Shown one piece after another: positions 2,293 through 49,162 of a DNA stretch of 64,000 bases. The notes under the pieces are model-generated. The model was not told the origin of the DNA. It worked only from the letters and a program-made list of their open reading frames with translations, and searched no databases. Position 1 is the stretch's first letter, and each line of letters opens with the position of its first letter. The position numbers and the translations under genes are program-made. Source of the stretch: Candidatus Omnitrophota bacterium (GTDB lineage Bacteria; Omnitrophota; Omnitrophia; Omnitrophales; Aquincolibacteriaceae); the NCBI GenBank assembly GCA_043718225.1, contig JAYSWD010000001.1, forward strand, positions 49,092 through 113,091. Direction: 5' to 3'.

Positions 2293-2461
2293 AAAAATAA
2301 ATTTAAATCAATAAACTGATCAAAAAGTTTTAGACGCAAGGCTTGAGCGAGCGACCGCGGAGCCGTAGTAAAACCTACGGCGCACAAGGAAGCGAAGCTC
2401 GTAACGCAGCGGATAAGCTTTTTCATCGGTTTAAACAAAGAACAAAAAGGATCTAACTCAC

Positions 2462-3967: not shown

Positions 3968-4144
3968 CATGACGGCTTCATTTGCGGAGCGAAGCGAGCG
4001 CAAATGAAATTGCCGGAATGTCATCCCAGAAACGCGTAGCGTTATCTGGGATCCAGACAAATGAAAAATTGGATTCCCGCCGGAGTTTACCCTCGAGCGA
4101 CATCGGGGGCGGGAATGACAGAAAGATTTTACAGTATCATTTTT

Positions 4145-4168
4145 GCTCTGCGCCTTTGGCGCAACCGC
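4145..4168 (+). repeat. Family A short hairpin repeat (CTCTG-RGC-loop-GCY-CAACCGC)
   Basis: gctctgcgcctttggcgcaaccgc. Confidence 0.8.
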
Positions 4169-4245
4169 CGAAAGCAAAAAAGATTTTTTTGAAAACCGCA
4201 TGTTGAGTTTATCGAGACATGCAAAATGTGAACGAGGAAAAGAAA

Positions 4246-5817: not shown

Positions 5818-6731
5818 TGCTGATCGGCGAAGCTTTATCTCTAGGAGAAAACCGGCTGAAACTTGCTGGCGTCCTTGAGGCTAGGACTGAATGCGAGCAT
5901 ATGTTGATGGAGCTGATGAACGCGAATCGTTCAGAAGTGCTGTTTTATATTAGCTCTGAGCAAAGCTCAACCGCGCCGTTTCATTTTGCCTCTGAGCCTT
6001 CGGCTCAAACGGCGAAGAGCAATTTGACGGCGCAGCAAGAGAAACAGTTTTTTGATTGGATTGCGAGCAGGGGAAAAAGAATTCCTTTGGCGTATTTGCT
6101 GGGCGATACGTTTTTTCATTCTTTGAAATTAAAAGTGGGACCGGGATGTTTGATTCCGCGGCCTGAAACAGAACGGTTGGTGGAAGCGGCGCTTAAGATT
6201 ATCCGCGAAGATAAATTGAATGCCCCGGTAATCATGGATATTGGAACGGGATCGGGCGCGATTGCGCTTGCGATTTTAGCCGCCGTGCCTGAGGCTAAAG
6301 CGGTGATGGTTGACTTTTCTGCGGAAGCTTTGAAGATTGCCCGTGAGAATACTGCGGAACTTGGATTTTTAGGCCGCGCTGAGTTAATTCACTCAGATTT
6401 ATATTTAAATATACCGTCTGATTTGAAAGTTAATTTGATTTTGTCGAATCCGCCCTATTTAACGGCCGAAGATTTGGCCGGCCTGCAGCCGGAAGTGGTT
6501 TTTGAGCCGCGAATGGCATTAGACGGCGGGAAAGACGGCTTGGATTTTTACCGGAAAATGATTCCGGATGCCGCAAAGTTTTTAAAGCCGCAAGGCTGGT
6601 TGGGATTTGAAGTCGGCGCCGGACAGGCCCAGGCAGTTAGCGCAGAGTTAAAGAGAAACGGTTATGAAGATCTGAGAATTATTAAAGATCATCAAGATAT
6701 AGAGCGCATAGTTTTAGCCCGAAAAGGTTGA
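5817..6731 (+). CDS. prmC: release factor glutamine N5-methyltransferase PrmC/HemK, carrying an in-frame ~20 aa insertion made of two Family A repeat copies
   Basis: NPPY motif (LSNPPYL), the SAM-binding MDIGTGSGAIA, and PLAYLLG..LIPRPETE. It aligns collinearly with E. coli PrmC except for the insertion SSTAPFHFASEPSAQTAKSN. Confidence 0.85.
   Translation: MLIGEALSLGENRLKLAGVLEARTECEHMLMELMNANRSEVLFYISSEQSSTAPFHFASEPSAQTAKSNLTAQQEKQFFDWIASRGKRIPLAYLLGDTFFHSLKLKVGPGCLIPRPETERLVEAALKIIREDKLNAPVIMDIGTGSGAIALAILAAVPEAKAVMVDFSAEALKIARENTAELGFLGRAELIHSDLYLNIPSDLKVNLILSNPPYLTAEDLAGLQPEVVFEPRMALDGGKDGLDFYRKMIPDAAKFLKPQGWLGFEVGAGQAQAVSAELKRNGYEDLRIIKDHQDIERIVLARKG
5943..5964 (+). repeat. Family A repeat, in-frame inside prmC
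   Basis: gctctgagcaaagctcaaccgc. Confidence 0.8.
5979..6004 (+). repeat. Family A repeat, in-frame inside prmC
   Basis: cctctgagccttcggctcaaacggcg. Confidence 0.75.
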
Positions 6732-8043: not shown

Positions 8044-8067
8044 ACGCGAAGCGTTTTCTTTTACTCG

Positions 8068-8091
8068 GCTCTGCGCTTTTGGCGTAACCGC
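8068..8091 (+). repeat. Family A repeat
   Basis: gctctgcgcttttggcgtaaccgc. Confidence 0.75.
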
Positions 8092-8150
8092 GCAAAACTA
8101 GCAAATTGTAGATTAGTAGTTAGTAAGTAGTAATAAAGGGAGAAAAGAAA

Positions 8151-8475: not shown

Positions 8476-9237
8476 ATGTTAGAAATTGATATCGTCACGT
8501 TGTTTCCGGATTTTTTCGAATCTCCGTTGAAACAGTCGCTTTTGAAGCGCGCGCAGGCCGACGGATTGATTAAAATCCGCGTGCATAATCTGCGCGATTG
8601 GGCGCGCGATAAGCATCACAAAACGGATGATTCGCCTTTTGGCGGCGGCCCCGGAATGGTGTTTAAGATCGAGCCAATGCATGAGTGCTTGAAAGAAATC
8701 GGTGCGGGAGCATGGAAAATTTTGCTCGATGCGCATGGCGAATTGCTGAAGCCAAAGTTGGCTGAAAGCCTCGCGCAGAAAAAGAAAATTGTTTTGATCG
8801 CGGGCCATTACGAAGGTATGGACTACCGCATTAAAGAACACCTGGTCGACCAAATGGTTTCGGTCGGTGACTTTATTACGATGGGCGGCGAAGCCCCGGC
8901 CTTGTGTTTGATTGAAGCGCTGACAAGGTTTGTTCCGGACGTGCTCGGAAACGAAGAATCGACGGCAGAAGAGAGTTTTAGCGGCGGGATGCTTGAATAT
9001 CCGCAGTATACGCGGCCGCGCGAATATAACGGTTGGGAAGTTCCCGAAGTTTTGTTTTCGGGAAATCATGCGAAGATAAAAAAGTGGCGTAATGAGACGG
9101 CGGAGAAATTGACGCGGAAGCACAGACCAGACTTACTACATTCTGCTTCTGCGCTGCCGGCGCAACCAGCGGATGAAGAGGGCAACAAAACCGTGAAGGT
9201 TAAGCTGAAAAGAGAAAGAGCTTCGAAAAAGAAATAA
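8476..9237 (+). CDS. trmD: tRNA (guanine37-N1)-methyltransferase
   Basis: SPOUT TrmD motifs (IVTLFPDFF, SPFGGGPGMV, LIAGHYEGMDYR). I chose the ATG at 8476 (MLEIDIV); the upstream in-frame stretch is Family A repeat sequence. The C-terminal tail contains a Family A copy in-frame. Confidence 0.85.
   Translation: MLEIDIVTLFPDFFESPLKQSLLKRAQADGLIKIRVHNLRDWARDKHHKTDDSPFGGGPGMVFKIEPMHECLKEIGAGAWKILLDAHGELLKPKLAESLAQKKKIVLIAGHYEGMDYRIKEHLVDQMVSVGDFITMGGEAPALCLIEALTRFVPDVLGNEESTAEESFSGGMLEYPQYTRPREYNGWEVPEVLFSGNHAKIKKWRNETAEKLTRKHRPDLLHSASALPAQPADEEGNKTVKVKLKRERASKKK
9147..9170 (+). repeat. Family A variant, in-frame in the trmD 3' end
   Basis: cttctgcgctgccggcgcaaccagc. Confidence 0.6.
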
Positions 9238-18562: not shown

Positions 18563-18666
18563 AAAATGCTTGCTCACTGCGTTGCAAACAGCGCTCCCTT
18601 GTGCGACGTATTACCGCATACGCCTCCGCGGTCGCTTGTTTACGCCTTGTGCCCAAGCCTTTTTGA
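18563..18666 (+). repeat. Family B ~105 nt structured terminator-associated repeat (A5...CTGC.TCGTT...CCTTGTGCG...CCTCCGCGG...CGCCTTG...T5GA)
   Basis: Copy after pabB, with the conserved blocks tgcgttgcaaa, cccttgtgcg, gtattaccgcatacgcctccgcgg and cctttttga. Confidence 0.75.
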
Positions 18667-21320: not shown

Positions 21321-21426
21321 AAAAAACATCATCTGCTTCGTTCCAAACTTCGCAATCTGCGTGCTGCGTATTACCGCATACGCCTCCTTAATTGCTCGTT
21401 TGCGCCTTGCATCTAATGCTTTTTGA
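21321..21426 (+). repeat. Family B repeat
   Basis: Copy after purH: ctgcttcgttccaaa ... gcgtattaccgcatacgcctcc ... tgcgccttgca ... ctttttga. Confidence 0.75.
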
Positions 21427-24095: not shown

Positions 24096-24210
24096 AAATT
24101 CATTGAAAACTTTCCGTCTGCGTTGTTGCGAACTGCGCTTTGTCGTGCGGCGTATTACCGCAGACGCCTCCTCCCGCACTTATTCGCGCCCAGCATCTAG
24201 GGATTTTTGA
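24096..24210 (+). repeat. Family B repeat
   Basis: First of two tandem copies after mnmE: tctgcgttgttgcgaa ... gcggcgtattaccgcagacgcctcc ... atttttga. Confidence 0.7.
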
Positions 24211-24411: not shown

Positions 24412-26151
24412 ATGAACTCCGACGAACAAATTACAAAAGACCAGCTGTTTTCACGCATTAAGCAGCGGAAGCAGCTGCTTGTTAAAAGACAAATGGTTGT
24501 GGCGGTGCTAGCCCTTGTTTTTGGCGGCCTGTTTGCAATGAAGGTTTTTGAACCGCTCGAATTTTTTTTCCTGGATAGCTGGCTTTCGCGGGCGCAGTGG
24601 AAAACAGAAACGAGCGTTGTTTTGGTGCCGATTACGGAAAAAAGCATTCAGCTCATCGGTAAATTGCCCTGGCCTCCTTCCCAGTATTCCGCAGTCCTGG
24701 AACTTTTAGCTGCTTGGAATGCGCGTGCTGTTTATATTGACCGTCATTTTGCGGAAAATTGGCCTGCCGAAGAATGGCAGCCGCTTTTAAAAATATTGCT
24801 AAAACGCAAAATCCCTGTTTTTTTTGCTTCCGGTGAATCATCCGGAGGGAAGACGATGAACTATCGAAATCCGCTTTCAGATTCAAAACCAGACACGGTT
24901 GATCTGCCGAAACAAATCAGTAAATATGCATTTTTTGGACACCGGGAATTAATGTCAGGGAAAGATCATGTTTTTCGCTTTTGGCAGCCCTGGATTAAAG
25001 ACAGCCGGGGGTTGACCCATCATTTAGCAGCATTGACCATGCTTATGGATCTCCGTTTTAATTTCAAGGACCGGGCGCTCGTGCGGTCATCAAGAAAAGA
25101 AATGCGGTTAATTCCCTGGAACCGTGTTCGCTTCGAAACTTGGCCACGTGTCGAGTTTTCGGATTTAATGCAAAACTATGTTCCCGCGCGCGACGGAATT
25201 CCTTCGCTGCTACCCACCACTTTATTTAATGACAAAGTTATTTTTATCGGCCAGGTGGATGAACCGCACGCAGGCTCAGGGTTAACGCCATGGAGAGAAG
25301 CCGTTGCTCCGATTGAAACCATGGCTGCAATTTATGACGGCTTGGGACGGCCGGGGTGGAACCTGAGTGTGATGGCGCCTTTTTGGGGATGCATTGTGTT
25401 TTTTATTTTGGTTGCGGGCCTGTTGATTGCATGGGTCGGAGTTTGCGCCGGAATGCGCTTTTGGCTGGGTTGGTTTGGACTGCTTTTTCTCGTGGCTTTG
25501 ACATGGGGCAGTTTTGTATTTTTCAAAACATGGTTTCCTTTTGCCGGGGTATTTTTGTTTTTATTAATTGCGGGTGCGGTTCTTTTTGCTTTTGAATCGA
25601 TTTATGCAGCGGGCGAACGCTCGGCATTATTTCACTTTGCGACGCGCGACGGATTAACAAATATTTATTCCATCCGTCATTTTCGTTTGATAATGAATCA
25701 AGTTACCCGTGAAGCGGCGATGAGATCCGAAGCATTGGCGGTTATTTTAATCGACATCGATTATTTCAAAAAAATCAATGACAGCTACGGCCATGCGGCG
25801 GGAGATAGGGTGATAAAAAAAACGGCGGAAGTGATCGAGGCGTCAATCAGGCAAAAAAGGACCTTTAAAGACGTTGATTTTCTTGCGCGGTATGGTGGTG
25901 AAGAATTTATCATTTTAATGCGCCGATCTTCGCTTGAAAATGCGGGCTTGGTTGCTGAGCGGATTCGAAACGCAATCGGACAAACGCATTTTGAGTGGCA
26001 GCTTAAGCGCGTTTTTGTAACTGTAAGTTTGGGCGTCGCCGTATTACATGAAGGTGAAAATGTTCCCGACCCCATGGTGCATCGAGCCGACAAGGCGCTT
26101 TATCGCGCCAAAGAAGCCGGGCGTAATTGTGTTTGTGTCGAGGAAGTGTAA
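24412..26151 (+). CDS. membrane diguanylate cyclase: CHASE2-like periplasmic sensor, TM bundle and GGDEF domain
   Basis: The N-terminal TM and ~250 aa periplasmic region are followed by three or four TM segments and a GGDEF domain (RYGGEEFIIL). Confidence 0.75.
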   Translation: MNSDEQITKDQLFSRIKQRKQLLVKRQMVVAVLALVFGGLFAMKVFEPLEFFFLDSWLSRAQWKTETSVVLVPITEKSIQLIGKLPWPPSQYSAVLELLAAWNARAVYIDRHFAENWPAEEWQPLLKILLKRKIPVFFASGESSGGKTMNYRNPLSDSKPDTVDLPKQISKYAFFGHRELMSGKDHVFRFWQPWIKDSRGLTHHLAALTMLMDLRFNFKDRALVRSSRKEMRLIPWNRVRFETWPRVEFSDLMQNYVPARDGIPSLLPTTLFNDKVIFIGQVDEPHAGSGLTPWREAVAPIETMAAIYDGLGRPGWNLSVMAPFWGCIVFFILVAGLLIAWVGVCAGMRFWLGWFGLLFLVALTWGSFVFFKTWFPFAGVFLFLLIAGAVLFAFESIYAAGERSALFHFATRDGLTNIYSIRHFRLIMNQVTREAAMRSEALAVILIDIDYFKKINDSYGHAAGDRVIKKTAEVIEASIRQKRTFKDVDFLARYGGEEFIILMRRSSLENAGLVAERIRNAIGQTHFEWQLKRVFVTVSLGVAVLHEGENVPDPMVHRADKALYRAKEAGRNCVCVEEV

Positions 26152-26184: not shown

Positions 26185-27960
26185 ATGATCAATTTAGACG
26201 AGCCCCTTACAACCGACCAGCTCTTTAGCCGTACCAAGCAGCGTCAGAATCTTTTAATTAAACGCCAAATTTTAACGTCAGTTTGCGCGCTGGTTTTCGG
26301 TGTGTTGCTTTTTTCGCGAACACTTGAACCGTTAGAGACAGCGCTTCTCGATGGATGGCTTTCGCGCACGCAGACAGAGGGCGCGCCGAAAATTGTTCTC
26401 ATTTCTGTTTCCGGCAAAAGCATCAGTCAAATCGGCAAATGGCCCTGGCCGCCTTTTCAGCATGCCGTGATGCTTGAATTACTTCAGCGCTTTGGAGCGC
26501 GTTCGGTTTATATTGACCATCCTTTTTCTGAAGCGTGGCGGGAAGAAGAGCAAAAACCGCTTACAACCGTTCTTGCCCGGCATCAAATGCCGGTTTTTTT
26601 TGCCGCGAATTACAGTCCTCGTTTTGAAAACGCCGGTCCCGGCCTTACGATTTTAAAGCAAGAAGGCCCGGCAAAAATGGAATGGGTGCGGCCTGTTCCG
26701 GAAATCGCGGAACTTGCGGCCTTCGGACACCGGCAGCTCAAGCCCGAACAAGACAGGGTTTTTCGCTTTTGGCAGCCGTGGCTGGAAGGACAGGAAGTTT
26801 CTTACCCACTTGCCGCGGTTAAGATGAACATGGAAACGCAAGCGAACCTTCGCGACAGCTCGCTGCTCAATTCTAACGAAACAGGAAAGCGTTTAATTCC
26901 CTGGAACCAAGCGCGTTATAAAAGTTGGCTGCGAATTGAATTTTCAGATTTAGTGGAAAGTTACCTGGCGATGCGCGAAGGCATGCGCCCCGCGATAACA
27001 GCCGAGATCTTTAAAGGCCGCGATGCTTTTATCGGCCTCGCGGATGAAGCCCAAGCGTTTTCAGGTTTGACACCGTGGCATCAAACCGTTTTTCCTTTTG
27101 AAGTTATGGCGGCCATTTTTGACGGGTTAAATCATCCGGGCCACAACATACGCCGCGTGGCGGGCGCGTATGCTCCGCTTATTTTTCTGCTTGCCGCGGC
27201 CGGAGTGCTTATTTTTTGCACAGGCAGAGCGGTTGGCCCTTTTTTTTGGATGGTTTGGGCAGGATTACTTTTCGGCGTGGTTTTAGCCTGGGCTATTTTC
27301 GTTTTTTTATTGATTTGGCTGCCTTGCGCGGCAGTGCTTTTATTTCTTTTAGTTTCAGGCGCGGCTATTTTTGCTTTTGACGCTTTGCATGCAAGACAGC
27401 AGCATTCGGCTCTTTTTCACCTCGCCACGCGCGATGGATTAACCAATTTATATGTGATCCGGCATTTTCGCGTCATCATGAATCAACTGACGCGCGAGGC
27501 CTGTGCTCGCAAAGAGCCGATTGCGGTTATTCTCATGGACATCGATCATTTCAAAATAATCAACGACACTTATGGCCACCCCGCGGGGGACATGGTGTTG
27601 AAAAAAACCGCACAGGCGATACAGGCCGCGGTCCGTCAAAAACGAATGTTTAAAGACATCGATTTTGTCGCGCGTTATGGCGGAGAAGAATTTATTGTCC
27701 TTGTCCGGCGCAATTCGCTTGAAATGGTATCTTCTAGGATCGCGGAACGGATTCGAAAGGCGATTCAGGAAACTCATTATGAATGGGAAGGAGAGCGCAT
27801 TTTTGTGACCGCCAGTTTTGGTGTTGCGGTTTTAAATGAAGGTGAAAATATTCCCGATGCCATGGTTCACCGCGCGGATAAAGCGCTTTATCTCGCGAAG
27901 CAAAATGGCCGTAACCGGGTTTGCACTGAGAACGATGTCAGGGGTGTCAAGGAAGCCTGA
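26185..27960 (+). CDS. membrane diguanylate cyclase, tandem paralog of the preceding gene
   Basis: It has the same architecture and is collinear with 24412-26151 (DQLFSRTKQR.., RYGGEEFIVL). I judge roughly 45% identity by eye. Confidence 0.75.
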   Translation: MINLDEPLTTDQLFSRTKQRQNLLIKRQILTSVCALVFGVLLFSRTLEPLETALLDGWLSRTQTEGAPKIVLISVSGKSISQIGKWPWPPFQHAVMLELLQRFGARSVYIDHPFSEAWREEEQKPLTTVLARHQMPVFFAANYSPRFENAGPGLTILKQEGPAKMEWVRPVPEIAELAAFGHRQLKPEQDRVFRFWQPWLEGQEVSYPLAAVKMNMETQANLRDSSLLNSNETGKRLIPWNQARYKSWLRIEFSDLVESYLAMREGMRPAITAEIFKGRDAFIGLADEAQAFSGLTPWHQTVFPFEVMAAIFDGLNHPGHNIRRVAGAYAPLIFLLAAAGVLIFCTGRAVGPFFWMVWAGLLFGVVLAWAIFVFLLIWLPCAAVLLFLLVSGAAIFAFDALHARQQHSALFHLATRDGLTNLYVIRHFRVIMNQLTREACARKEPIAVILMDIDHFKIINDTYGHPAGDMVLKKTAQAIQAAVRQKRMFKDIDFVARYGGEEFIVLVRRNSLEMVSSRIAERIRKAIQETHYEWEGERIFVTASFGVAVLNEGENIPDAMVHRADKALYLAKQNGRNRVCTENDVRGVKEA

Positions 27961-28022: not shown

Positions 28023-28109
28023 GGAGAGGTGGCAGAGTGGTTGAATGCGCTAGTCTCGAAAACTGGTATGCCCGCAAGGGTATCGGGGGTTCGAATCCCC
28101 CCCTCTCCG
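28023..28109 (+). tRNA. tRNA-Ser (anticodon CGA), class II with a long variable arm
   Basis: Acceptor GGAGAGG/CCTCTCC, anticodon loop CTCGAAA, T-arm GGGGGTTCGAATCCCCC, discriminator G. CCA is not encoded. Confidence 0.85.
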
Positions 28110-28230
28110 GTTCTAAATATGCCCTTGCCTGCTGCGTTACGCTCCCTCAAATTTTCTCAACGTACATTTTAAGGTAAGCCTTAAAAATTTTCGGTCGCAA
28201 GCCTTGCATTCAAGGGCATCTTTAGAACCG
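28110..28230 (+). repeat. Family B-like variant directly after tRNA-Ser, enclosed by a 19 bp inverted repeat (ggttctaaatatgcccttg / caagggcatctttagaacc)
   Basis: cctgctgcgttacgctccct ... cgcaagccttgcattca, inside a long stem. Confidence 0.6.
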
Positions 28231-28236
28231 CTAAAT

Positions 28237-28407
28237 GGAGTGGGGATTCGAAGTGAGGAGCCCAAACCATCAAGTTGACCGAAGGAAAAATCTGACTTAA
28301 TGTCAGGTTTTGAAAGAGGGAAGACAAGGGGCGACGAGTGGCCGACCTGGAAAGAGTGCGGCGACTAGCCGACACGAATGGAGGGCGCCGTTAATCCCCC
28401 TCTCTCC
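28237..28407 (+). repeat. Family C ~170 nt tRNA-downstream element whose 3' end near-duplicates the tRNA-Ser T-arm and acceptor 3' half
   Basis: Shares aaatctgacttaatgtcag and agtgcggcgactagccgacacgaatgga with the copy at 34901-35068. It ends aatccccctctctccg, compared with aatcccccctctccg in the tRNA. Confidence 0.6.
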
Positions 28408-28508
28408 GTATCGATTCCGCTAATTGAAATCATGCTTGCTAGAACAGAGTGGCGTTAATTCCCTGGCAGATGCTTTTATTTTATTTGAAGAGGGAACGCT
28501 CTCACGTT

Positions 28509-33139: not shown

Positions 33140-33245
33140 AAAAAAGTCATTTGCCGCGTTGCAAACCTCGCTTCCTCCCGCGATGTATTACCGAATACAC
33201 CTTGGTCGGGCGCTTGTTTGCGCCTTGCAACTGATCTTTTTTGAT
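33140..33245 (+). repeat. Family B repeat
   Basis: Copy after recR: ttgccgcgttgcaaa ... cttcctcccgcgatgtattaccgaatacacc ... tgcgccttgca ... cttttttga. Confidence 0.75.
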
Positions 33246-33282
33246 CAGTCTTTCCAAAATGAGGTTTTAAAAAGGAGATTTT

Positions 33283-33837
33283 GTGAAAAAAACAGCGGTT
33301 TTTATTTTAATGGTAATCGCTGGCATGTCTTTGGCATGGGCGCAAGAAACAACAGAAGAGTGGACCGCGGCAAGAATGGAATATGCCAAATCAAAAAACT
33401 ATAATTCACTTATCCAGAGCAGCTCAGAGAGAAAGGCAGTGATGGAGGCCTTTAAAGCCGAAGATTATGAAAAAACAATTAATTTAGGGTTGAAATGGCT
33501 GGAAAAAAATCCGACAGATATTAGAGGGCTGCATGTTGTCGGAGTTTCATACGATAAATTGGGAAAAATAGAAGAAGCTAAAAAATATTTGAATAACCGC
33601 AACAAAATCTGCGATTCAATCGCCGCTTCAGGTGACGGGCGTACGCTCGAAACCGCTTTTTTAATGTTATCAACTGCAGAAGTCCATGATTTTATAAATA
33701 TTCTTGGCGCTCAAAACTGTAAATACGTTTTGCAGCCAGGCGGCGGTGATCGGGCTGATTGTAATACTCCCGAGGGCCGTGAGATTTCTATCTATTTCAA
33801 ATATATTTCCGAATATTGGTCGGGCTTACTGAGATAA
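33283..33837 (+). CDS. hypothetical secreted protein (184 aa)
   Basis: Signal peptide MKKTAVFILMVIAGMSLAWA, a TPR-like helical region and a Cys-containing C-terminus. Confidence 0.5.
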   Translation: MKKTAVFILMVIAGMSLAWAQETTEEWTAARMEYAKSKNYNSLIQSSSERKAVMEAFKAEDYEKTINLGLKWLEKNPTDIRGLHVVGVSYDKLGKIEEAKKYLNNRNKICDSIAASGDGRTLETAFLMLSTAEVHDFINILGAQNCKYVLQPGGGDRADCNTPEGREISIYFKYISEYWSGLLR

Positions 33838-34650: not shown

Positions 34651-34702
34651 AGCTTAAACATTGATTCTGAGACTCGTCTTGATTAGAATACCGCTCTCTT
34701 GC

Positions 34703-34773
34703 GCGGGTATTGCTTAATGGTAAAGCGCTAGCCTTCCAAGCTAGTTATGAGGGTTCGATTCCCTCTACCCGCT
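34703..34773 (+). tRNA. tRNA-Gly (anticodon TCC)
   Basis: Acceptor GCGGGTA/TACCCGC, anticodon loop CTTCCAA, T-arm GAGGGTTCGATTCCCTC. Confidence 0.8.
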
Positions 34774-34897
34774 CTCGGTTTCTAAAAAGAACCGTCTGCT
34801 GCGTTATCACCTTCGCTCCCTTGTGCGGAGTAATTAGCATTACACCTCCGCGATCGCTCGGCGACGCCTTGCATTCAGGCTCTTTTGAGAAACCGAG
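34774..34897 (+). repeat. Family B repeat directly after tRNA-Gly, enclosed by a 20 bp inverted repeat (ctcggtttctaaaaagaaccg / ggctcttttgagaaaccgag)
   Basis: tctgctgcgttatcaccttcgctcccttgtgcgg ... cacctccgcg ... cgccttgcattca. Confidence 0.7.
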
Positions 34898-34900
34898 CGG

Positions 34901-35068
34901 ATAACGGGGGAATCGAACGGGAGGCGCGATTAGTTTTAATGATTTAGTATGAAAAAATCTGACTTAATGTCAGATTTTTTTGTGATAAATGCGTTATGAG
35001 CGCCGGGAGGCGAGTCGAAGTAAGTGCGGCGACTAGCCGGCACGAATGAAGACCGCTCGATTCCTTGT
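34901..35068 (+). repeat. Family C element downstream of tRNA-Gly
   Basis: Blocks gggggaatcgaac, aaaatctgacttaatgtcagatttttt and agtgcggcgactagccggcacgaatgaag. It ends ..cgattcc. Confidence 0.6.
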
Positions 35069-35151
35069 GTTTTTAATCACTTAAAAAATGATCTAACCCA
35101 TTCATATTAAATGACTTCCAGCTTGAATACAAGGCCTGCCTGAGCCATTCT

Positions 35152-35179
35152 TTGACTTTTGACCTGAAAAACCTATAAT
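35152..35179 (+). promoter_or_regulatory. Sigma70-like promoter of the nusA-infB operon (TTGACT-16-TATAAT)
   Basis: TTGACT at 35152 and TATAAT at 35174. Confidence 0.45.
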
Positions 35180-35246
35180 AACCCCGTTTTGACGCCCGAA
35201 AACTACTAGGGCGAACGCAGTCATTTTAATGTTTTAGATTTTGATA

Positions 35247-35278
35247 AGAAGTGGGCTTTGACCCACTTCTTTTTTTTC
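35247..35278 (+). terminator. Leader hairpin plus T-run between the promoter and nusA (attenuator-like)
   Basis: agaagtgggctttgacccacttcttttttttt: a 9 bp stem followed by T8, 43 nt before the nusA ATG. Confidence 0.5.
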
Positions 35279-35320: not shown

Positions 35321-36586
35321 ATGTCGCAGGAGCTTTTGTCATCGTTGGAATATATCGAAAAAGAAAAGGGCGTTTCGCGCGAAGTCCTTTTTGACGCGAT
35401 TCGTCACGCCTTAATTTCCGCTTTACGTAAATCTTTTCCACAGTACGGCGAAGATTTTGACGTGCAAATCGATCCTCAAACGATGCGCATTCAATTATTG
35501 CGCGCCGGAAAACCTTTTCAAGATCCGCATTTCGGGCGCATCGCCGCACAAACCGCGAAGCAGGTCATCATTCAGAAAATCCGCGAAGCACAGCGGGATT
35601 CTATTTTTGATGAATTTACCGCGAAGCAAGGCGATATCGTGAACGGTACCGTTCATCGCGTGGACGCGCGCGCCATTGTTGTGGACTTCGGAAAAACTGA
35701 AGGAATTCTGCCTGCCCGTGAAATGTCCCCGGCGGATCAATACCGCCAAGGCAATGTCATCCGCGCTTTTGTGCTCGAAGTGAATCGTACGCCGCGCGGC
35801 CCGGAAATCATTCTTTCTCGCACGCATCCTGATTTCGTAAAAAAACTTTTTGAGCTCGAAGTTCCCGAAATCGCGGACAAACTTGTTTTGATTAAGGGCG
35901 TCGCGCGTGAGGCGGGCTCGCGCAGCAAGGTCGCCGTTGTTTCTTCGGATCCCAAAATCGACTGCGTTGGTTCCTGTGTGGGCGTACGCGGGCAGCGCGT
36001 GAAGAATATCGTGCGCGAACTGGAAGGCGAAAAAATTGATATTGTTCCGTACTCCGAAAAAATCGAAGAATTTATTAAAAGCGCGATGTCGCCGGCGGAA
36101 ATTTTTGAAATGAAACTTGACCGTCAGCGGCTAGTTGCCGACTTGCTTGTTAAAGATGACCAGCTTTCGCTGGCGATTGGAAAGCGGGGACAAAATGTGC
36201 GCCTTGCTTCCAAACTTGTGGGATGGACGATTGATGTTCGCAGCGAAGGCCAGCGCGCGGCTCTGGACGTGCTGCCCGGAATTGATGCCGCGGTGATTCA
36301 AACATTGAAGGCCGGCGGAATTTTATCTATCAAAGATGTTTTGAAGTCATCTCCCGAACAGCTGTCGCAGATTGCCGGGCTCGACTTGGCAACCGCGCAA
36401 AAAATTTTACAAGCCGCGGAAGCAACCAAGGCCGTAAAAGTTGAACCGGAAAAAGAAATACCAGTCGCAACTGAAAATATTGATGCGGTATCCGAAAATG
36501 AAAGTCCCGCTGTGGACAGTCAGCCCGAAGCAGAGAAGCCGTCTCATTCTTCCTCTGAGCCCTTGGCTCAACCGGATAAGGACTAA
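35321..36586 (+). CDS. nusA: transcription termination/antitermination factor NusA, C-terminal tail ending in a Family A repeat
   Basis: NusA N-terminal, S1 and two KH domains. The tail ..SSEPLAQPDKD is encoded by the CTCTGAGC..GCTCAACCGG element. Confidence 0.9.
   Translation: MSQELLSSLEYIEKEKGVSREVLFDAIRHALISALRKSFPQYGEDFDVQIDPQTMRIQLLRAGKPFQDPHFGRIAAQTAKQVIIQKIREAQRDSIFDEFTAKQGDIVNGTVHRVDARAIVVDFGKTEGILPAREMSPADQYRQGNVIRAFVLEVNRTPRGPEIILSRTHPDFVKKLFELEVPEIADKLVLIKGVAREAGSRSKVAVVSSDPKIDCVGSCVGVRGQRVKNIVRELEGEKIDIVPYSEKIEEFIKSAMSPAEIFEMKLDRQRLVADLLVKDDQLSLAIGKRGQNVRLASKLVGWTIDVRSEGQRAALDVLPGIDAAVIQTLKAGGILSIKDVLKSSPEQLSQIAGLDLATAQKILQAAEATKAVKVEPEKEIPVATENIDAVSENESPAVDSQPEAEKPSHSSSEPLAQPDKD
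36553..36576 (+). repeat. Family A repeat, in the nusA C-terminal tail
   Basis: cctctgagcccttggctcaaccgg. Confidence 0.75.
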
Positions 36587-38856: not shown

Positions 38857-38957
38857 TTCGCTGAAAAATGTTCATCTGCTTCGTCAGTCGCTTCGCTTCC
38901 TTGTGCGGGTATTGCCGCATACGCCTCCGCGGGCGCTCGCGACTTCCTCGCGTCTAA
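38854..38957 (+). repeat. Family B repeat
   Basis: Copy after infB: atctgcttcgtcag ... cttccttgtgcgggtattgccgcatacgcctccgcggg ... tttttttga. Confidence 0.75.
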
Positions 38958-39002
38958 ATTTTTTTGAGCGAATTTAATATTTTTTGAATTTAGGAATTAT
39001 TT

Positions 39003-40142: not shown

Positions 40143-41132
40143 ATGCGGATTTTTAAGGTAACGGCGTCATTTAAAAAAATTACCAAACGGCCGCTTGTTC
40201 TTGCGCTCGGAAATTTTGACGGTATTCACCGGGGGCATCAAAAGCTTTTAGATTATGTTGTCAGCCAGGCAAAGAAACTGCATGGTTGCGCGGCAGTGTT
40301 TACTTTTCAAGAGCATCCGCAAGCGATTTTGCATCCGGAACATGCGCCCGAAAGCCTGCAAGCGCTTGAGCAAAAACTGGCGCTTTTCCGAGCGCGCGGA
40401 ATCGAGATTTCTTTTTTACAGAATTTTGATTCGCGTTTTTCGATGCTTTCGGCGGAAGAGTTTGTAAAAAAAATTCTTGTTAAGCAGCTTGGCATTCGCG
40501 AGATTTGCCTCGGTTATAACGCGCGTTTTGGCCGCGGGCGGGAAGGCGATGCAGATCTTCTCCGTAAGCTGGGCAAAGAATGCGGTTTTAAGGTTTTTCA
40601 GGCGCGGCCTGTCGCTTGGCGGGGAGTGCCGGTTTCAAGTACGGCGGTCAGAAAAGCCGTACATGCGGGGAAAATGAACCTCGCGGCGCAATTATTGGGG
40701 CGGCCGTGGAGCGTAGCGGGTATCATCAAGCGCGGAAGTGCGCGCGGGGAAAAACTGGGGTTTGCTACGGCGAACATGGATTTAAATAAATATGCACGCC
40801 CGGCTTTTGGAGTTTATGCCGTCCATGTGCTGCTACATAATATTGCCTCTGCGCCTAAGGCGCAACCGGCGCAGCGTCGTTCAGCCTCTGGGCTCACCCA
40901 ACCGGCATTTTGCAACGGTGTGGCGAATTTTGGATTGAGGCCTACTTTTGGAGGAACGGTAAAGCCTGTTTTGGAAACCCATCTTTTTAATTTTAAGAAA
41001 AACATTTACGGAAAAAAAATAGAAGTATTTTTTGTGAAGCGCCTGAGAAATGAAAAAAAATTTACCTCCAAAGAAGAGCTCGCGAAACAAATTCAAAAAG
41101 ATATTCGTGCCGCGAAGGTCGCGTTGAAATAA
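40143..41132 (+). CDS. ribF: bifunctional riboflavin kinase / FMN adenylyltransferase, with a ~20 aa in-frame insertion made of two Family A repeats
   Basis: N-terminal FMNAT (GNFDGIHRGHQ) and C-terminal riboflavin kinase (GVYAV..GVANFGLRPTF). The insertion ASAPKAQPAQRRSASGLTQPA sits in a loop that is absent from E. coli RibF. Confidence 0.85.
   Translation: MRIFKVTASFKKITKRPLVLALGNFDGIHRGHQKLLDYVVSQAKKLHGCAAVFTFQEHPQAILHPEHAPESLQALEQKLALFRARGIEISFLQNFDSRFSMLSAEEFVKKILVKQLGIREICLGYNARFGRGREGDADLLRKLGKECGFKVFQARPVAWRGVPVSSTAVRKAVHAGKMNLAAQLLGRPWSVAGIIKRGSARGEKLGFATANMDLNKYARPAFGVYAVHVLLHNIASAPKAQPAQRRSASGLTQPAFCNGVANFGLRPTFGGTVKPVLETHLFNFKKNIYGKKIEVFFVKRLRNEKKFTSKEELAKQIQKDIRAAKVALK
40846..40870 (+). 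repeat. Family A repeat, in-frame inside ribF
   Basis: gcctctgcgcctaaggcgcaaccggc. Confidence 0.75.
40884..40906 (+). repeat. Family A repeat, in-frame inside ribF
   Basis: gcctctgggctcacccaaccggc. Confidence 0.75.
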
Positions 41133-45870: not shown

Positions 45871-45963
45871 GCAAGTTTCTGCGCATAATAAACTGCGTTT
45901 AGTGCTTAGGAATTTCAAGCATCTTTCCGATAATATGAGAGCTCTATCTCAATTGTTGTTTTG

Positions 45964-45989
45964 GTTCTGCGCTTTTGGCGCAACCACGG
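45964..45989 (+). repeat. Family A repeat
   Basis: gttctgcgcttttggcgcaaccacgg. Confidence 0.7.
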
Positions 45990-46022
45990 TAAAATTTCTA
46001 AAATAACTTTATATTGGCTTAA

Positions 46023-48456: not shown

Positions 48457-48564
48457 GAAAAAGGGCTTCTGCGTCGTTGCAAAAATCTCACTTCCTTGTG
48501 CGGCGCACGTTTCTAGTACGCCTCCGCGGGCGTTCGTTGGCGCCTTGCATAACCACCTTTTTGA
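48457..48564 (+). repeat. Family B repeat
   Basis: Copy after ftsK: ttctgcgtcgttgcaaaa ... cttccttgtgcgg ... tacgcctccgcggg ... gcgccttgca ... cctttttga. Confidence 0.75.
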
Positions 48565-48829: not shown

Positions 48830-48990
48830 GCAACAATGTCCCGTCCAACTTGTTTTTAAGCCCGACACAGCACCGAGGTATATTCTTATATCGCCTATAG
48901 CGATTTAAATTTTAACGAAGGGCCAGGTCCGTCCGACTTGTTTTTAAACCGGACACGGCACGGAGCATTGTTTTCAAATGGCTTTAAGCC
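48830..48990 (+). promoter_or_regulatory. Two ~40 nt direct repeats plus short palindromes, ~200-330 bp upstream of phoB
   Basis: Repeat 1 (48838-48877) is gtcccgtccaacttgtttttaagcccgacacagcaccgagg. Repeat 2 (48926-48966) is gtccgtccgacttgtttttaaaccggacacggcacggagc. The palindromes atcgcctatagcgat and aatggctttaagccatt lie alongside, and the pair is flanked by caacaatg / cattgtt. Confidence 0.4.
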
Positions 48991-49162
48991 ATTTGAATTA
49001 AAAGGAAGCGCCAGTGTCAAGAACGTGTAAATTCATTTTCCGCCTCTCGCAATCAAAGGCGCACTTGTGTATGATTCACCGAGGAAGAAGCCGGTTTTAA
49101 GAAATTAAGTGATAGTAATAAAGCTTAAACCTTATCACTTATAACTTATTACCAAAGGACCC

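Follow-up and report, generated by a model that had tools for sequence, protein, structure and literature searches.

A putative gene-less integrative element with a covarying Y-shaped fold at the 3' ends of tRNA genes in Candidatus Omnitrophota

Genomic islands and prophages inserted by tyrosine integrases into transfer RNA (tRNA) genes, with the crossover in the T loop, their integrase-less derivatives (cis-mobilisable elements, CIMEs) and hot spots of the tycheposon type are the known systems with which the element described here can be compared; Williams, in 2002, reportedly distinguished sublocation classes of integration within tRNA genes. The element, designated Family C, is present in a 64,000-nucleotide (nt) stretch of contig JAYSWD010000001.1 of Candidatus Omnitrophota (assembly GCA_043718225.1). 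This whole stretch, to which all copy counts for the source genome refer, is called the window, and it was assigned to that phylum via NusA, whose gene lies just 3' of the tRNA-Gly copy. As had been noted in the initial annotation, a first reading of the sequence, a tRNA-Ser and a tRNA-Gly are each followed by one copy; these genes, tRNA-Ser(CGA) and tRNA-Gly(UCC), are the only two tRNA genes of the window, and they and their copies all lie on the plus strand. Judging from the sequences compared, the element occupies tRNA 3' ends in one sub-clade of Candidatus Omnitrophota. On balance, we consider it somewhat probable that Family C is a non-autonomous, gene-less integrative element, which recombines within tRNA genes, between the T loop and the 3' end, and owes its mobility to an enzyme acting in trans.

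The likeness of Family C to tRNA-gene islands and their relatives lies in having one junction with an intact tRNA and another where a partial 3' end, now displaced, forms a direct repeat, in the start of this repeat within the T loop, in the tandem build-up of units at one tRNA, and in the existence of empty sites in relatives. Unlike such islands, the element measures about 300 nt, has no genes, and contains a covarying folded module, D2, together with an inverted copy of the T loop able to pair with the repeat; moreover, one and the same module stands at six or more tRNA species. Membership in the tRNA-targeting integrative islands is plausible as a non-autonomous derivative, the only form possible, since the 300-nt unit is geneless and no recombinase is found among the neighbouring open reading frames (ORFs).

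In the window, each tRNA gene stops at the discriminator base, with no encoded CCA, and the unit continues with domain 1 (a hairpin of some 125 nt), a segment in which the T loop and 3' T stem are copied in inverted orientation, the conserved core D2 ('Family C' proper, about 160 nt) and a direct repeat of the tRNA (Table 1). The inverted copy stops exactly at the complement of T54, and the direct repeat spans approximately from C56 to position 73. In copy 1 the tRNA-Ser gene ends ...CTCTCCG and the element abuts directly on it; the inverted match to the tRNA is exact over 11 nt and is located at +133 from the tRNA end, the corresponding match in copy 2 being also of 11 nt, at +134. The direct repeat of the Gly copy is longer in its orthologues, reaching 22-25 nt in L005 and 19 nt in L025 (L-numbers, L001-L028, designate loci or contigs fetched for comparison or picked up by scans). 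Concerning domain 1, that of copy 1 contains CTGCTGCGTTA (28129-28139) and GCCTTGCATTCAAG (28201-28214), its long inverted repeat being visible in a minus-strand alignment, and belongs to a subtype, X2, which is also placed after displaced tRNA 3' ends in L009, L016 and L025. That of copy 2, together with the 3' end of tRNA-Gly and the inverted copy, constitutes an inverted repeat with 41-nt arms (34753-34793 and 34878-34918).

The defining feature of the family, overlooked in the initial annotation, is that the T loop and 3' end of the respective tRNA are copied both inversely and directly. That reading was correct in placing two exact blocks shared by both copies: the hairpin block AAAATCTGACTTAATGTCAGRTTTT (28287-28311 and 34954-34978) and the block AGTGCGGCGACTAGCCGRCACGAATGRAG (28355-28383 and 35023-35051) each occur at just two window sites, and neither gave any match in dinucleotide-preserving shuffles of the sequence (0 matches). 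A third one, the 'GGGGAWTCGAA block' (28242-28252 and 34906-34918), had been taken for a motif of the family, a view that has to be abandoned, since in each copy it reproduces, as the reverse complement, the local tRNA's T loop together with its 3' T stem. Nor is the sequence between the blocks simply unrelated, as had been claimed, because base-paired helices are kept there through compensatory changes. The likeness between the copies begins before position 34901, straight after the tRNA (CTGCTGCGTTA, GCCTTGCATTCARG), and this upstream similar part is a piece of a different hairpin repeat, X, distributed over the whole window. Two bases 3' of the Ser repeat, at 28411-28419, there is a T-loop/T-stem piece of Gly or Phe type, TCGATTCCG, possibly the remnant of another displaced tRNA 3' end.

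The checking of structure and covariation suggested in the initial annotation has been carried out, using RNAalifold and a model-based alignment of 11 distinct D2 copies, and it reveals a covarying three-way junction. D2 is Y-shaped: stem P1, formed by the inverted copy and the repeat, is joined to a long arm capped by hairpin H1 (AAAAUCUGAC-UUAAU-GUCAGAUUUU) and to a second arm composed of P2, a 2-bp helix and P3 (GUGCGGC-GACUA-GCCG-A-CAC), in which a bulged A is conserved. Standard pairs fill 95.2% of the cells, in an alignment fitted to the model, versus 35-44% after sliding the partners by 1-3 columns. Both-sided changes occur in 24 of the 34 pairs, and compensatory pairs amount to 6/7 in P2 and 5/7 in P3. 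Thus, P3 reads CACGC-GACCA-GCGU-A-G behind tRNA-Lys and GCCGC-GACUA-GCGG-A-C in the Ser copy of L009, and H1 reads GCGGAC-CCAU-GUCCGC in L025. The fold of the Ser copy has a z-score of -2.4, and that of the Gly copy one of -5.5. Taking into account that G-U cells are 13 versus a single A-C cell, the folded strand is the tRNA-sense strand. At the junction, P1 pairing between the inverted copy and the repeat is found in 92% of the cells, and is compatible with RNA or single-stranded DNA alike.

No described RNA family accounts for this fold. With Rfam 15, only the two tRNAs exceeded the gathering threshold in the window, and at E values up to 10 nothing beyond chance was obtained over D2; ARAGORN, used with the Rfam tRNA model for the tRNA calls, detected no transfer-messenger RNA (tmRNA) in the window. 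A tmRNA or permuted tmRNA was also rejected because the inverted T loop accounts for the GGAUUCGA-like 5' motif and each genome has several copies. Group I or II introns were discarded, the tRNA being intact and intron cores being absent, with a 13.9-bit chance match of D5 on H1 as the sole match. A retron-like non-coding RNA, suggested by the closing inverted repeat followed by G, was likewise rejected, there being no reverse transcriptase anywhere nearby. H1 is not an intrinsic terminator: its variant in L025 resembles one, but the U-run measures 2-7 nt and is not conserved. Finally, an origin of the inverted copy through palindrome extension was dismissed because in L005 only the 10 nt adjoining D2 match, and the part on the hairpin side does not.

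The relatives compared were syntenic contigs with a NusA identity of 79-90%, plus outgroups with 61-63%. More copies were gathered by means of degenerate block patterns in a genome scan and a metagenome scan; these collection scans relied on exact patterns and may have passed over divergent members as well as any autonomous parent. The genome scan, performed with GTGCGGCGACTAGCCGRCAC, gave one true match (L002) and one chance match within a gene (L001). A first metagenome scan gave 0 matches and a second one 10, among which L014, L017 and L019 are unrelated and L020 is only loosely similar. A genome-wide search for the shared blocks had been proposed at the outset; the search in other genomes recovered the module behind tRNAs of related Omnitrophota contigs, so that the family is not limited to two copies. 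Full-length D2, scoring 114-151 bits with R1, the covariance model built for it, is found behind at least six tRNA species: tRNA-Ser(CGA) (window, L009), tRNA-Ser(GGA) (L016), tRNA-Gly(UCC) (window, L005-8, L021, L023 twice, L025/26), tRNA-Pro(UGG) (L002), tRNA-Pro(CGG) (L015) and tRNA-Lys(CUU) (L012, L018). Over about 350 kb of related sequence, R1 detected nothing besides the tRNA-linked copies.

In all copies D2 lies on the same strand as its tRNA, and the tRNA genes at occupied sites are intact according to ARAGORN. Full-length copies that reach far enough have an exact inverted match of 9-18 nt, located at +131 to +155 from the tRNA end, and an exact direct repeat of 8-22 nt, at +283 to +306, both fitting the local tRNA. 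In L012 the inverted copy stands at +45 because its domain 1 is short, and the locus stops before the repeat. Seven control tRNAs without D2, from the same loci, showed just scattered chance matches of 8-9 nt.

Occupation of these sites is polymorphic. The syntenic tRNA-Ser(CGA) of L005 is an empty site, the gene ending ...CTCTCCGCCA (...CCGCCA), and outgroups L027 and L028 conserve the synteny and both tRNAs and have no D2. Two full D2 units stand in tandem behind tRNA-Gly in L023. In the arrays of L009 (Ser), L016 and L015 a full unit comes first, and behind it stand the repeat, another hairpin, another inverted copy and a D2 that is truncated. Orthologous Gly copies have decayed in L009, which has lost H1, in L003, which lacks the 3' half, and in L022, where nearly all of D2 is missing. 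The orthologues of tRNA-Gly encode CCA in L005, L009 and L022, and do not in L003, L023 and L025. In L025 the gene ends ...CCCGCT followed by AAAAC, without CCA, and the displaced repeat (...CCCGCTCCAGTC) keeps CCA and trailer, with an older hairpin after it; the reverse is seen in L016 and L009, with CCA in the gene and none in the displaced repeat. This swap fits a series of events each of which replaces the 3' segment of the gene and shifts the former one downstream.

The junction-proximal strand of P2 varies with tRNA type, being GGGCGCC for Ser, GGGCGGT or GACCGCT for Gly, GGGAACC for Lys, and GGGAGCC or GGAGACC for Pro. Copies at tRNA-Ser(CGA) and tRNA-Ser(GGA) have in common this strand and an unusual TT|AAT junction, their tails differing at 1/24 positions. 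With respect to enzymes, neither an integrase nor a transposase or reverse transcriptase was recognised in the window or close to the copies examined in relatives, either by Pfam analysis of about 50 ORFs around the copies or in the Pfam tables of the fetched loci; the unit of 300 nt contains no credible gene, and no integrase that would mark an autonomous form. Pattern scans of IMG/VR gave 0 matches to D2-type blocks, blastn against phage and plasmid collections gave 0 matches, and no description of such an element was found in a literature search. Altogether, the proposal of a non-autonomous tRNA-targeting mobile element, one of two put forward in the initial annotation, is supported by the relatives, through the six or more tRNA species, the direct repeats of the local tRNA, the empty sites, the tandem arrays, the decayed copies and the lack of a recombinase nearby.

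Two further loci resemble these arrangements. In L027 (8552-8760), an outgroup (NusA identity 61%) without D2, tRNA-Gly(UCC) is trailed by two partial 3'-end copies, ATTCCCGCTGCCCGCT (around 8654-8669) and GCTGCCCGCTCCATTGAT (around 8739-8757), which border inserts of 70-100 nt that are unrelated; it may be that small insertions are widespread at tRNA 3' ends in Omnitrophota. L020 (3372-3610) is an unrelated metagenome contig in which tRNA-Val(UAC) has behind it a terminator, a T-arm piece in inverted orientation (GCTCGAACTCCCG), a CTGAC/GTCAG hairpin and a direct repeat of the tRNA 3' end, 15 nt long with CCA; it resembles the D2 family in layout, yet the unit has half the size, lacks P2/P3 and scores 24 bits with R1.

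Table 1. Coordinates of the two Family C units and of dispersed repeats in the window
Feature	Position	Strand	Basis or remarks
tRNA-Ser(CGA), target of copy 1	28023-28109	+	ARAGORN; Rfam tRNA 59.4 bits
Domain 1 of copy 1, long hairpin, X2 subtype of X repeat	28110-28236	+	Outer arms 28109-28127 and 28211-28229
Inverted copy of tRNA-Ser 3' end, GGAG-T-GGGGATTCGAA	28237-28252	+	Reverse complement of TTCGAATCCCC..CTCC; 5' arm of P1
D2 of copy 1	28242-28403	+	R1 150.9 bits, E 1e-32; three-way junction with P1, H1, P2 and P3
H1 of copy 1	28287-28311	+	
P2 of copy 1	28340-28348 with 28383-28389	+	
P3 of copy 1	28356-28375	+	Bulged A
Direct repeat of tRNA-Ser 3' end, AATCCCCCTCTCTCCG	28393-28408	+	15/16 identical to tRNA positions 58-73; 3' arm of P1
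tRNA-Gly(UCC), target of copy 2	34703-34774	+	ARAGORN, Rfam; no encoded CCA (...CCCGCT then CTCGG)
Domain 1 of copy 2, member of X hairpin repeat	34775-34895	+	Repeat comparison
Inverted copy of tRNA-Gly T loop and T stem, GGGGGAATCGAAC	34906-34918	+	Reverse complement of GTTCGATTCCCcC; 5' arm of P1
D2 of copy 2	34908-35069	+	R1 140.5 bits, E 3e-30; P1, H1, P2 and P3; fold -63.5 kcal/mol, z = -5.5
H1 of copy 2	34954-34978	+	
P2 of copy 2	35009-35016 with 35051-35057	+	
P3 of copy 2	35024-35043	+	Bulged residue
Degenerate direct repeat of tRNA-Gly T loop and T stem, TCGATTCC	35057-35064	+	3' arm of P1
X repeat copies	18581-18666, 21341-21426, 24125-24210, 33156-33244, 34796-34895, 38909-38974, 48517-48564		
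X repeat copy, inverted	2293-2423		
REP-like copies (included among others)	4140-4173, 5984-6017, 8063-8096, 9141-9174, 36547-36580, 40841-40874, 45959-45992		

Taking these data together, it can be proposed that Family C enters by site-specific recombination, with a crossover that would occur within the T loop. The element would import its own tRNA 3' segment, keeping the gene intact, and the previous 3' end, shoved downstream, would become the direct repeat. Its recombinase would come in trans, encoded elsewhere in the genome or by a parent element. When single-stranded or excised, the element might have its inverted T-loop copy paired with the repeat (P1), and the folded form would then display, beside a conserved fold (P2/P3 and H1) presumably bound by protein, a duplex that imitates the T-arm region of the tRNA gene. 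The recombining form would thus be folded, much as integron attC and CTX-phage attP are, a proposal made because a plain double-strand integrase reaction explains neither a covarying strand-specific fold nor an inverted T-loop copy. Homology-dependent targeting, of the att type, is favoured because the junction strand of P2 tracks tRNA type and is common to the Ser-CGA and Ser-GGA copies.

Several points weigh against this integrative reading. Contig-level sequence and exact-pattern scans revealed neither an autonomous parent nor a recombinase, nor an excised circle or its junction. The mid region of the Gly element of L025 is 92% identical to that of the Lys element of L018, and interior modules are common to elements at different tRNAs; an element carrying its own tRNA segment should be tRNA-specific, so this sharing would imply that elements recombine with one another or that they insert by a different chemistry. 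Neither the inverted T-loop copy nor the covarying fold is needed by a classical double-strand integrase. As to the fold itself, the covariation of P1 is trivial and has no weight, since both its arms copy the same tRNA, and the remaining figures come from an alignment adjusted to the model. Finally, the Gly copy has been kept at one locus over lineages with 79-100% NusA identity, so it could be an old feature, partly retained by the host.

One further reading is that D2 is the cis-acting core of an undescribed kind of mobile element, whose target would be chosen by nucleic-acid mimicry or pairing, a view that we regard as unlikely. According to it, the folded strand, as DNA or RNA, would offer a copy-specific T-loop complement beside a protein-binding scaffold (P2/P3, H1), and an enzyme acting in trans would insert the 300-nt element, possibly circular and largely self-paired, precisely at T55/C56, so that a change of about 10 nt could shift its specificity.

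Guide-like recognition, in the form of target-guided insertion, is the main rival and appears to us quite doubtful; in it the element has no tRNA segment of its own and the 10-nt inverted T-loop copy is an RNA or single-stranded DNA guide, pairing with the T loop of any tRNA gene. The enzyme, acting in trans, would cut about 18 nt apart (55|56 and 73|74), and the direct repeat would be a long target-site duplication, as in casposases/Cas1, or else the guide would operate as in IS200/IS605 or IS110 bridge RNAs. This would account for repeat endpoints (about C56 and position 73) that are set by tRNA structure in L025, L016, L009 and the window Ser copy, and for the two A's complementary to T54-T55, kept in 10 of 11 copies though unpaired in P1 after insertion. 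It would also suit the defined folded strand, the interior modules common to different tRNA targets, and the Ser copies, whose inverted copy fits the tRNA better than it fits the degenerate repeat. However, repeat length varies from 8 to 25 nt, the 25 nt of L005 including CCA and GTC; the junction-proximal P2 strand tracks tRNA type, which is unexpected under free hopping; no candidate enzyme is known; and the guide would have to mutate upon every change of target.

The constant position of D2 on the tRNA strand has also to be considered from the side of the host. The other proposal of the initial annotation was a small non-coding RNA family placed after tRNAs. It could be thought, improbable as we judge it, that D2 is a host small RNA (sRNA) coming from the 3' trailer of the tRNA, transcribed together with it and set free by the enzymes that process tRNAs, with tRNA-like ends that serve processing or regulation and with repeats that are by-products of its origin. 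The covarying fold has a G-U bias typical of RNA, both window tRNAs bear D2, and H1 and P3 are identical in sequence between the window copies, while the orthologues differ. Furthermore, D2 has no promoter match of its own, which leaves read-through from the tRNA promoter as the only obvious source of transcription. Against it, strong terminator hairpins separate the tRNA from D2 in L002 and L012, the orthologous copies of L003, L009 and L022 are deleted or truncated, the same tRNAs exist without D2 in L005 and the outgroups, and tandem arrays hold truncated older units. In addition, perfect repeats of 19-25 nt run into the non-tRNA trailer, showing DNA duplication rather than selection at the RNA level. 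That the units are scars of large genomic islands or prophages, attL and attR arms left after internal deletion of an integrase-bearing element, is very improbable: island integration is classically marked by partial tRNA 3'-end repeats past tRNA genes, and similar ones flank small unrelated inserts at the tRNA-Gly of the distant L027, but independent deletions would neither yield the same unit of 285-305 nt at six tRNAs nor keep helices via compensatory changes, and phage, plasmid and IMG/VR collections gave no match.

Some features of the neighbourhood can be added. The tRNA-Gly cassette (34660-35092), comprising promoter, tRNA, hairpin, D2 and repeat, flips among relatives between the same flanks, an SDR gene and nusA. 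It is in plus orientation in the window, in L025/L026 and in outgroups L027 and L028, and in minus orientation in five lineages (L003, L005-L011, L022, L023), including the closest relative of the window; at least two inversions are needed, and a clear flanking inverted repeat was not found. Downstream, a near-consensus promoter (35152-35179, TTGACT-16-TATAAT) is followed by a strong terminator hairpin with T-run (35246-35271) and the nusA start (35321), an arrangement conserved in all relatives; the segment 35152-35279 looks like a leader or attenuator of the nusA-infB operon. Two tandem paralogous CHASE2-GGDEF genes (24412-26151 and 26185-27960), with 71-74% DNA identity over several stretches, correspond to a single gene in relatives. 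Between recR and the SDR gene, which overlap in L005, the window holds an X hairpin and a DUF4919 gene (33156-33837).

The X hairpin repeat, of about 110 nt, immediately follows stop codons and tRNAs. It has conserved internal blocks (CTGCTKCGTT..., GCGTATTACCGCATACGCCTCCGCGG..., GCCTTGCAT...CTTTTTGA) and outer arms that vary between copies, stay complementary and extend to the stop codon. It is polymorphic between relatives, the IF2-rbfA spacer being occupied in the window and L003 but vacant in L005 and L009, and for this reason X resembles transposable elements of the miniature inverted-repeat type (MITEs) or REPINs. A second family, similar to repetitive extragenic palindromic (REP) sequences, consists of short repeats holding a small hairpin (about 23-34 nt, ...CTCTGMGC-NNNN-GCKCAACCGC...), with at least 11 window copies in both orientations. 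At 48841-49014, between ftsK and a response-regulator gene, there are two tandem 86-nt copies, 74% identical and with an 88-nt period, each with an internal palindrome and neither with an Rfam match at the gathering threshold.

If the integrative reading is right, Family C would be among the smallest integrative elements known to us, with a fold supported by covariation and a target-matching segment, in a phylum without a cultured model, and tRNA 3' ends would be colonised by miniature enzyme-less parasites besides large islands. The signature composed of T-loop complement, Y-shaped module and T-loop repeat could be searched for in complete genomes in order to find the missing recombinase. If a folded strand or a guide does choose the site, this would be a new and readily reprogrammable way of selecting integration sites; we think it unlikely that the element represents a new mode of target recognition. 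For annotation, it has to be considered that these units alter CCA encoding, tRNA trailers and local gene orientation.

With regard to other known systems, D2 may be likened to integron attC and CTX-phage attP(+) in that one strand folds, an imperfect inverted repeat would constitute the crossover-holding stem, structure is kept more than sequence, an extrahelical base is conserved (in D2, the bulged A of P3), and after integration both arms lie beside one junction (inverted copy-D2-repeat). It differs from them in that its stem mimics a tRNA T arm, and not dif or the GTTRRRY core, and in that a three-way junction of about 140 nt stands for the 'loop'; in the loci examined, D2 showed no link to IntI or Xer. 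Like REPIN/REP and MITE hairpin repeats, it is non-autonomous, short, hairpin-forming, multi-copy and placed after genes, which is the behaviour of the X family. In contrast to them, D2 occurs only behind tRNA genes, is not a simple hairpin, and has terminal repeats that copy the target and not the element; a MITE was rejected, since its terminal inverted repeat (P1) differs from one tRNA to another and the duplication, of 8-25 nt, is tRNA-derived instead of short and fixed.

IS110 bridge RNAs and IS200/IS605 guides share with D2 an internal segment complementary to the target across the insertion point and an adjoining structured non-coding part. Unlike them, D2 has no DEDD or HUH transposase gene, two-loop bridge architecture or Rfam match, and has a long direct repeat that those families do not make; an element of the IS110 bridge-RNA type was discarded, there being no ORF and the three-way junction having a single target-complementary segment. 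The sRNAs of tRNA 3' external transcribed spacers also lie directly 3' of a tRNA on the same strand, and are distinguished from D2 by its direct and inverted tRNA repeats, its presence/absence and tandem polymorphism, and the terminator that intervenes in some copies. In sum, with respect to tRNA islands, what sets the element apart is the size of about 300 nt, the absence of genes, the conserved Y-shaped fold and the inverted copy of the target.

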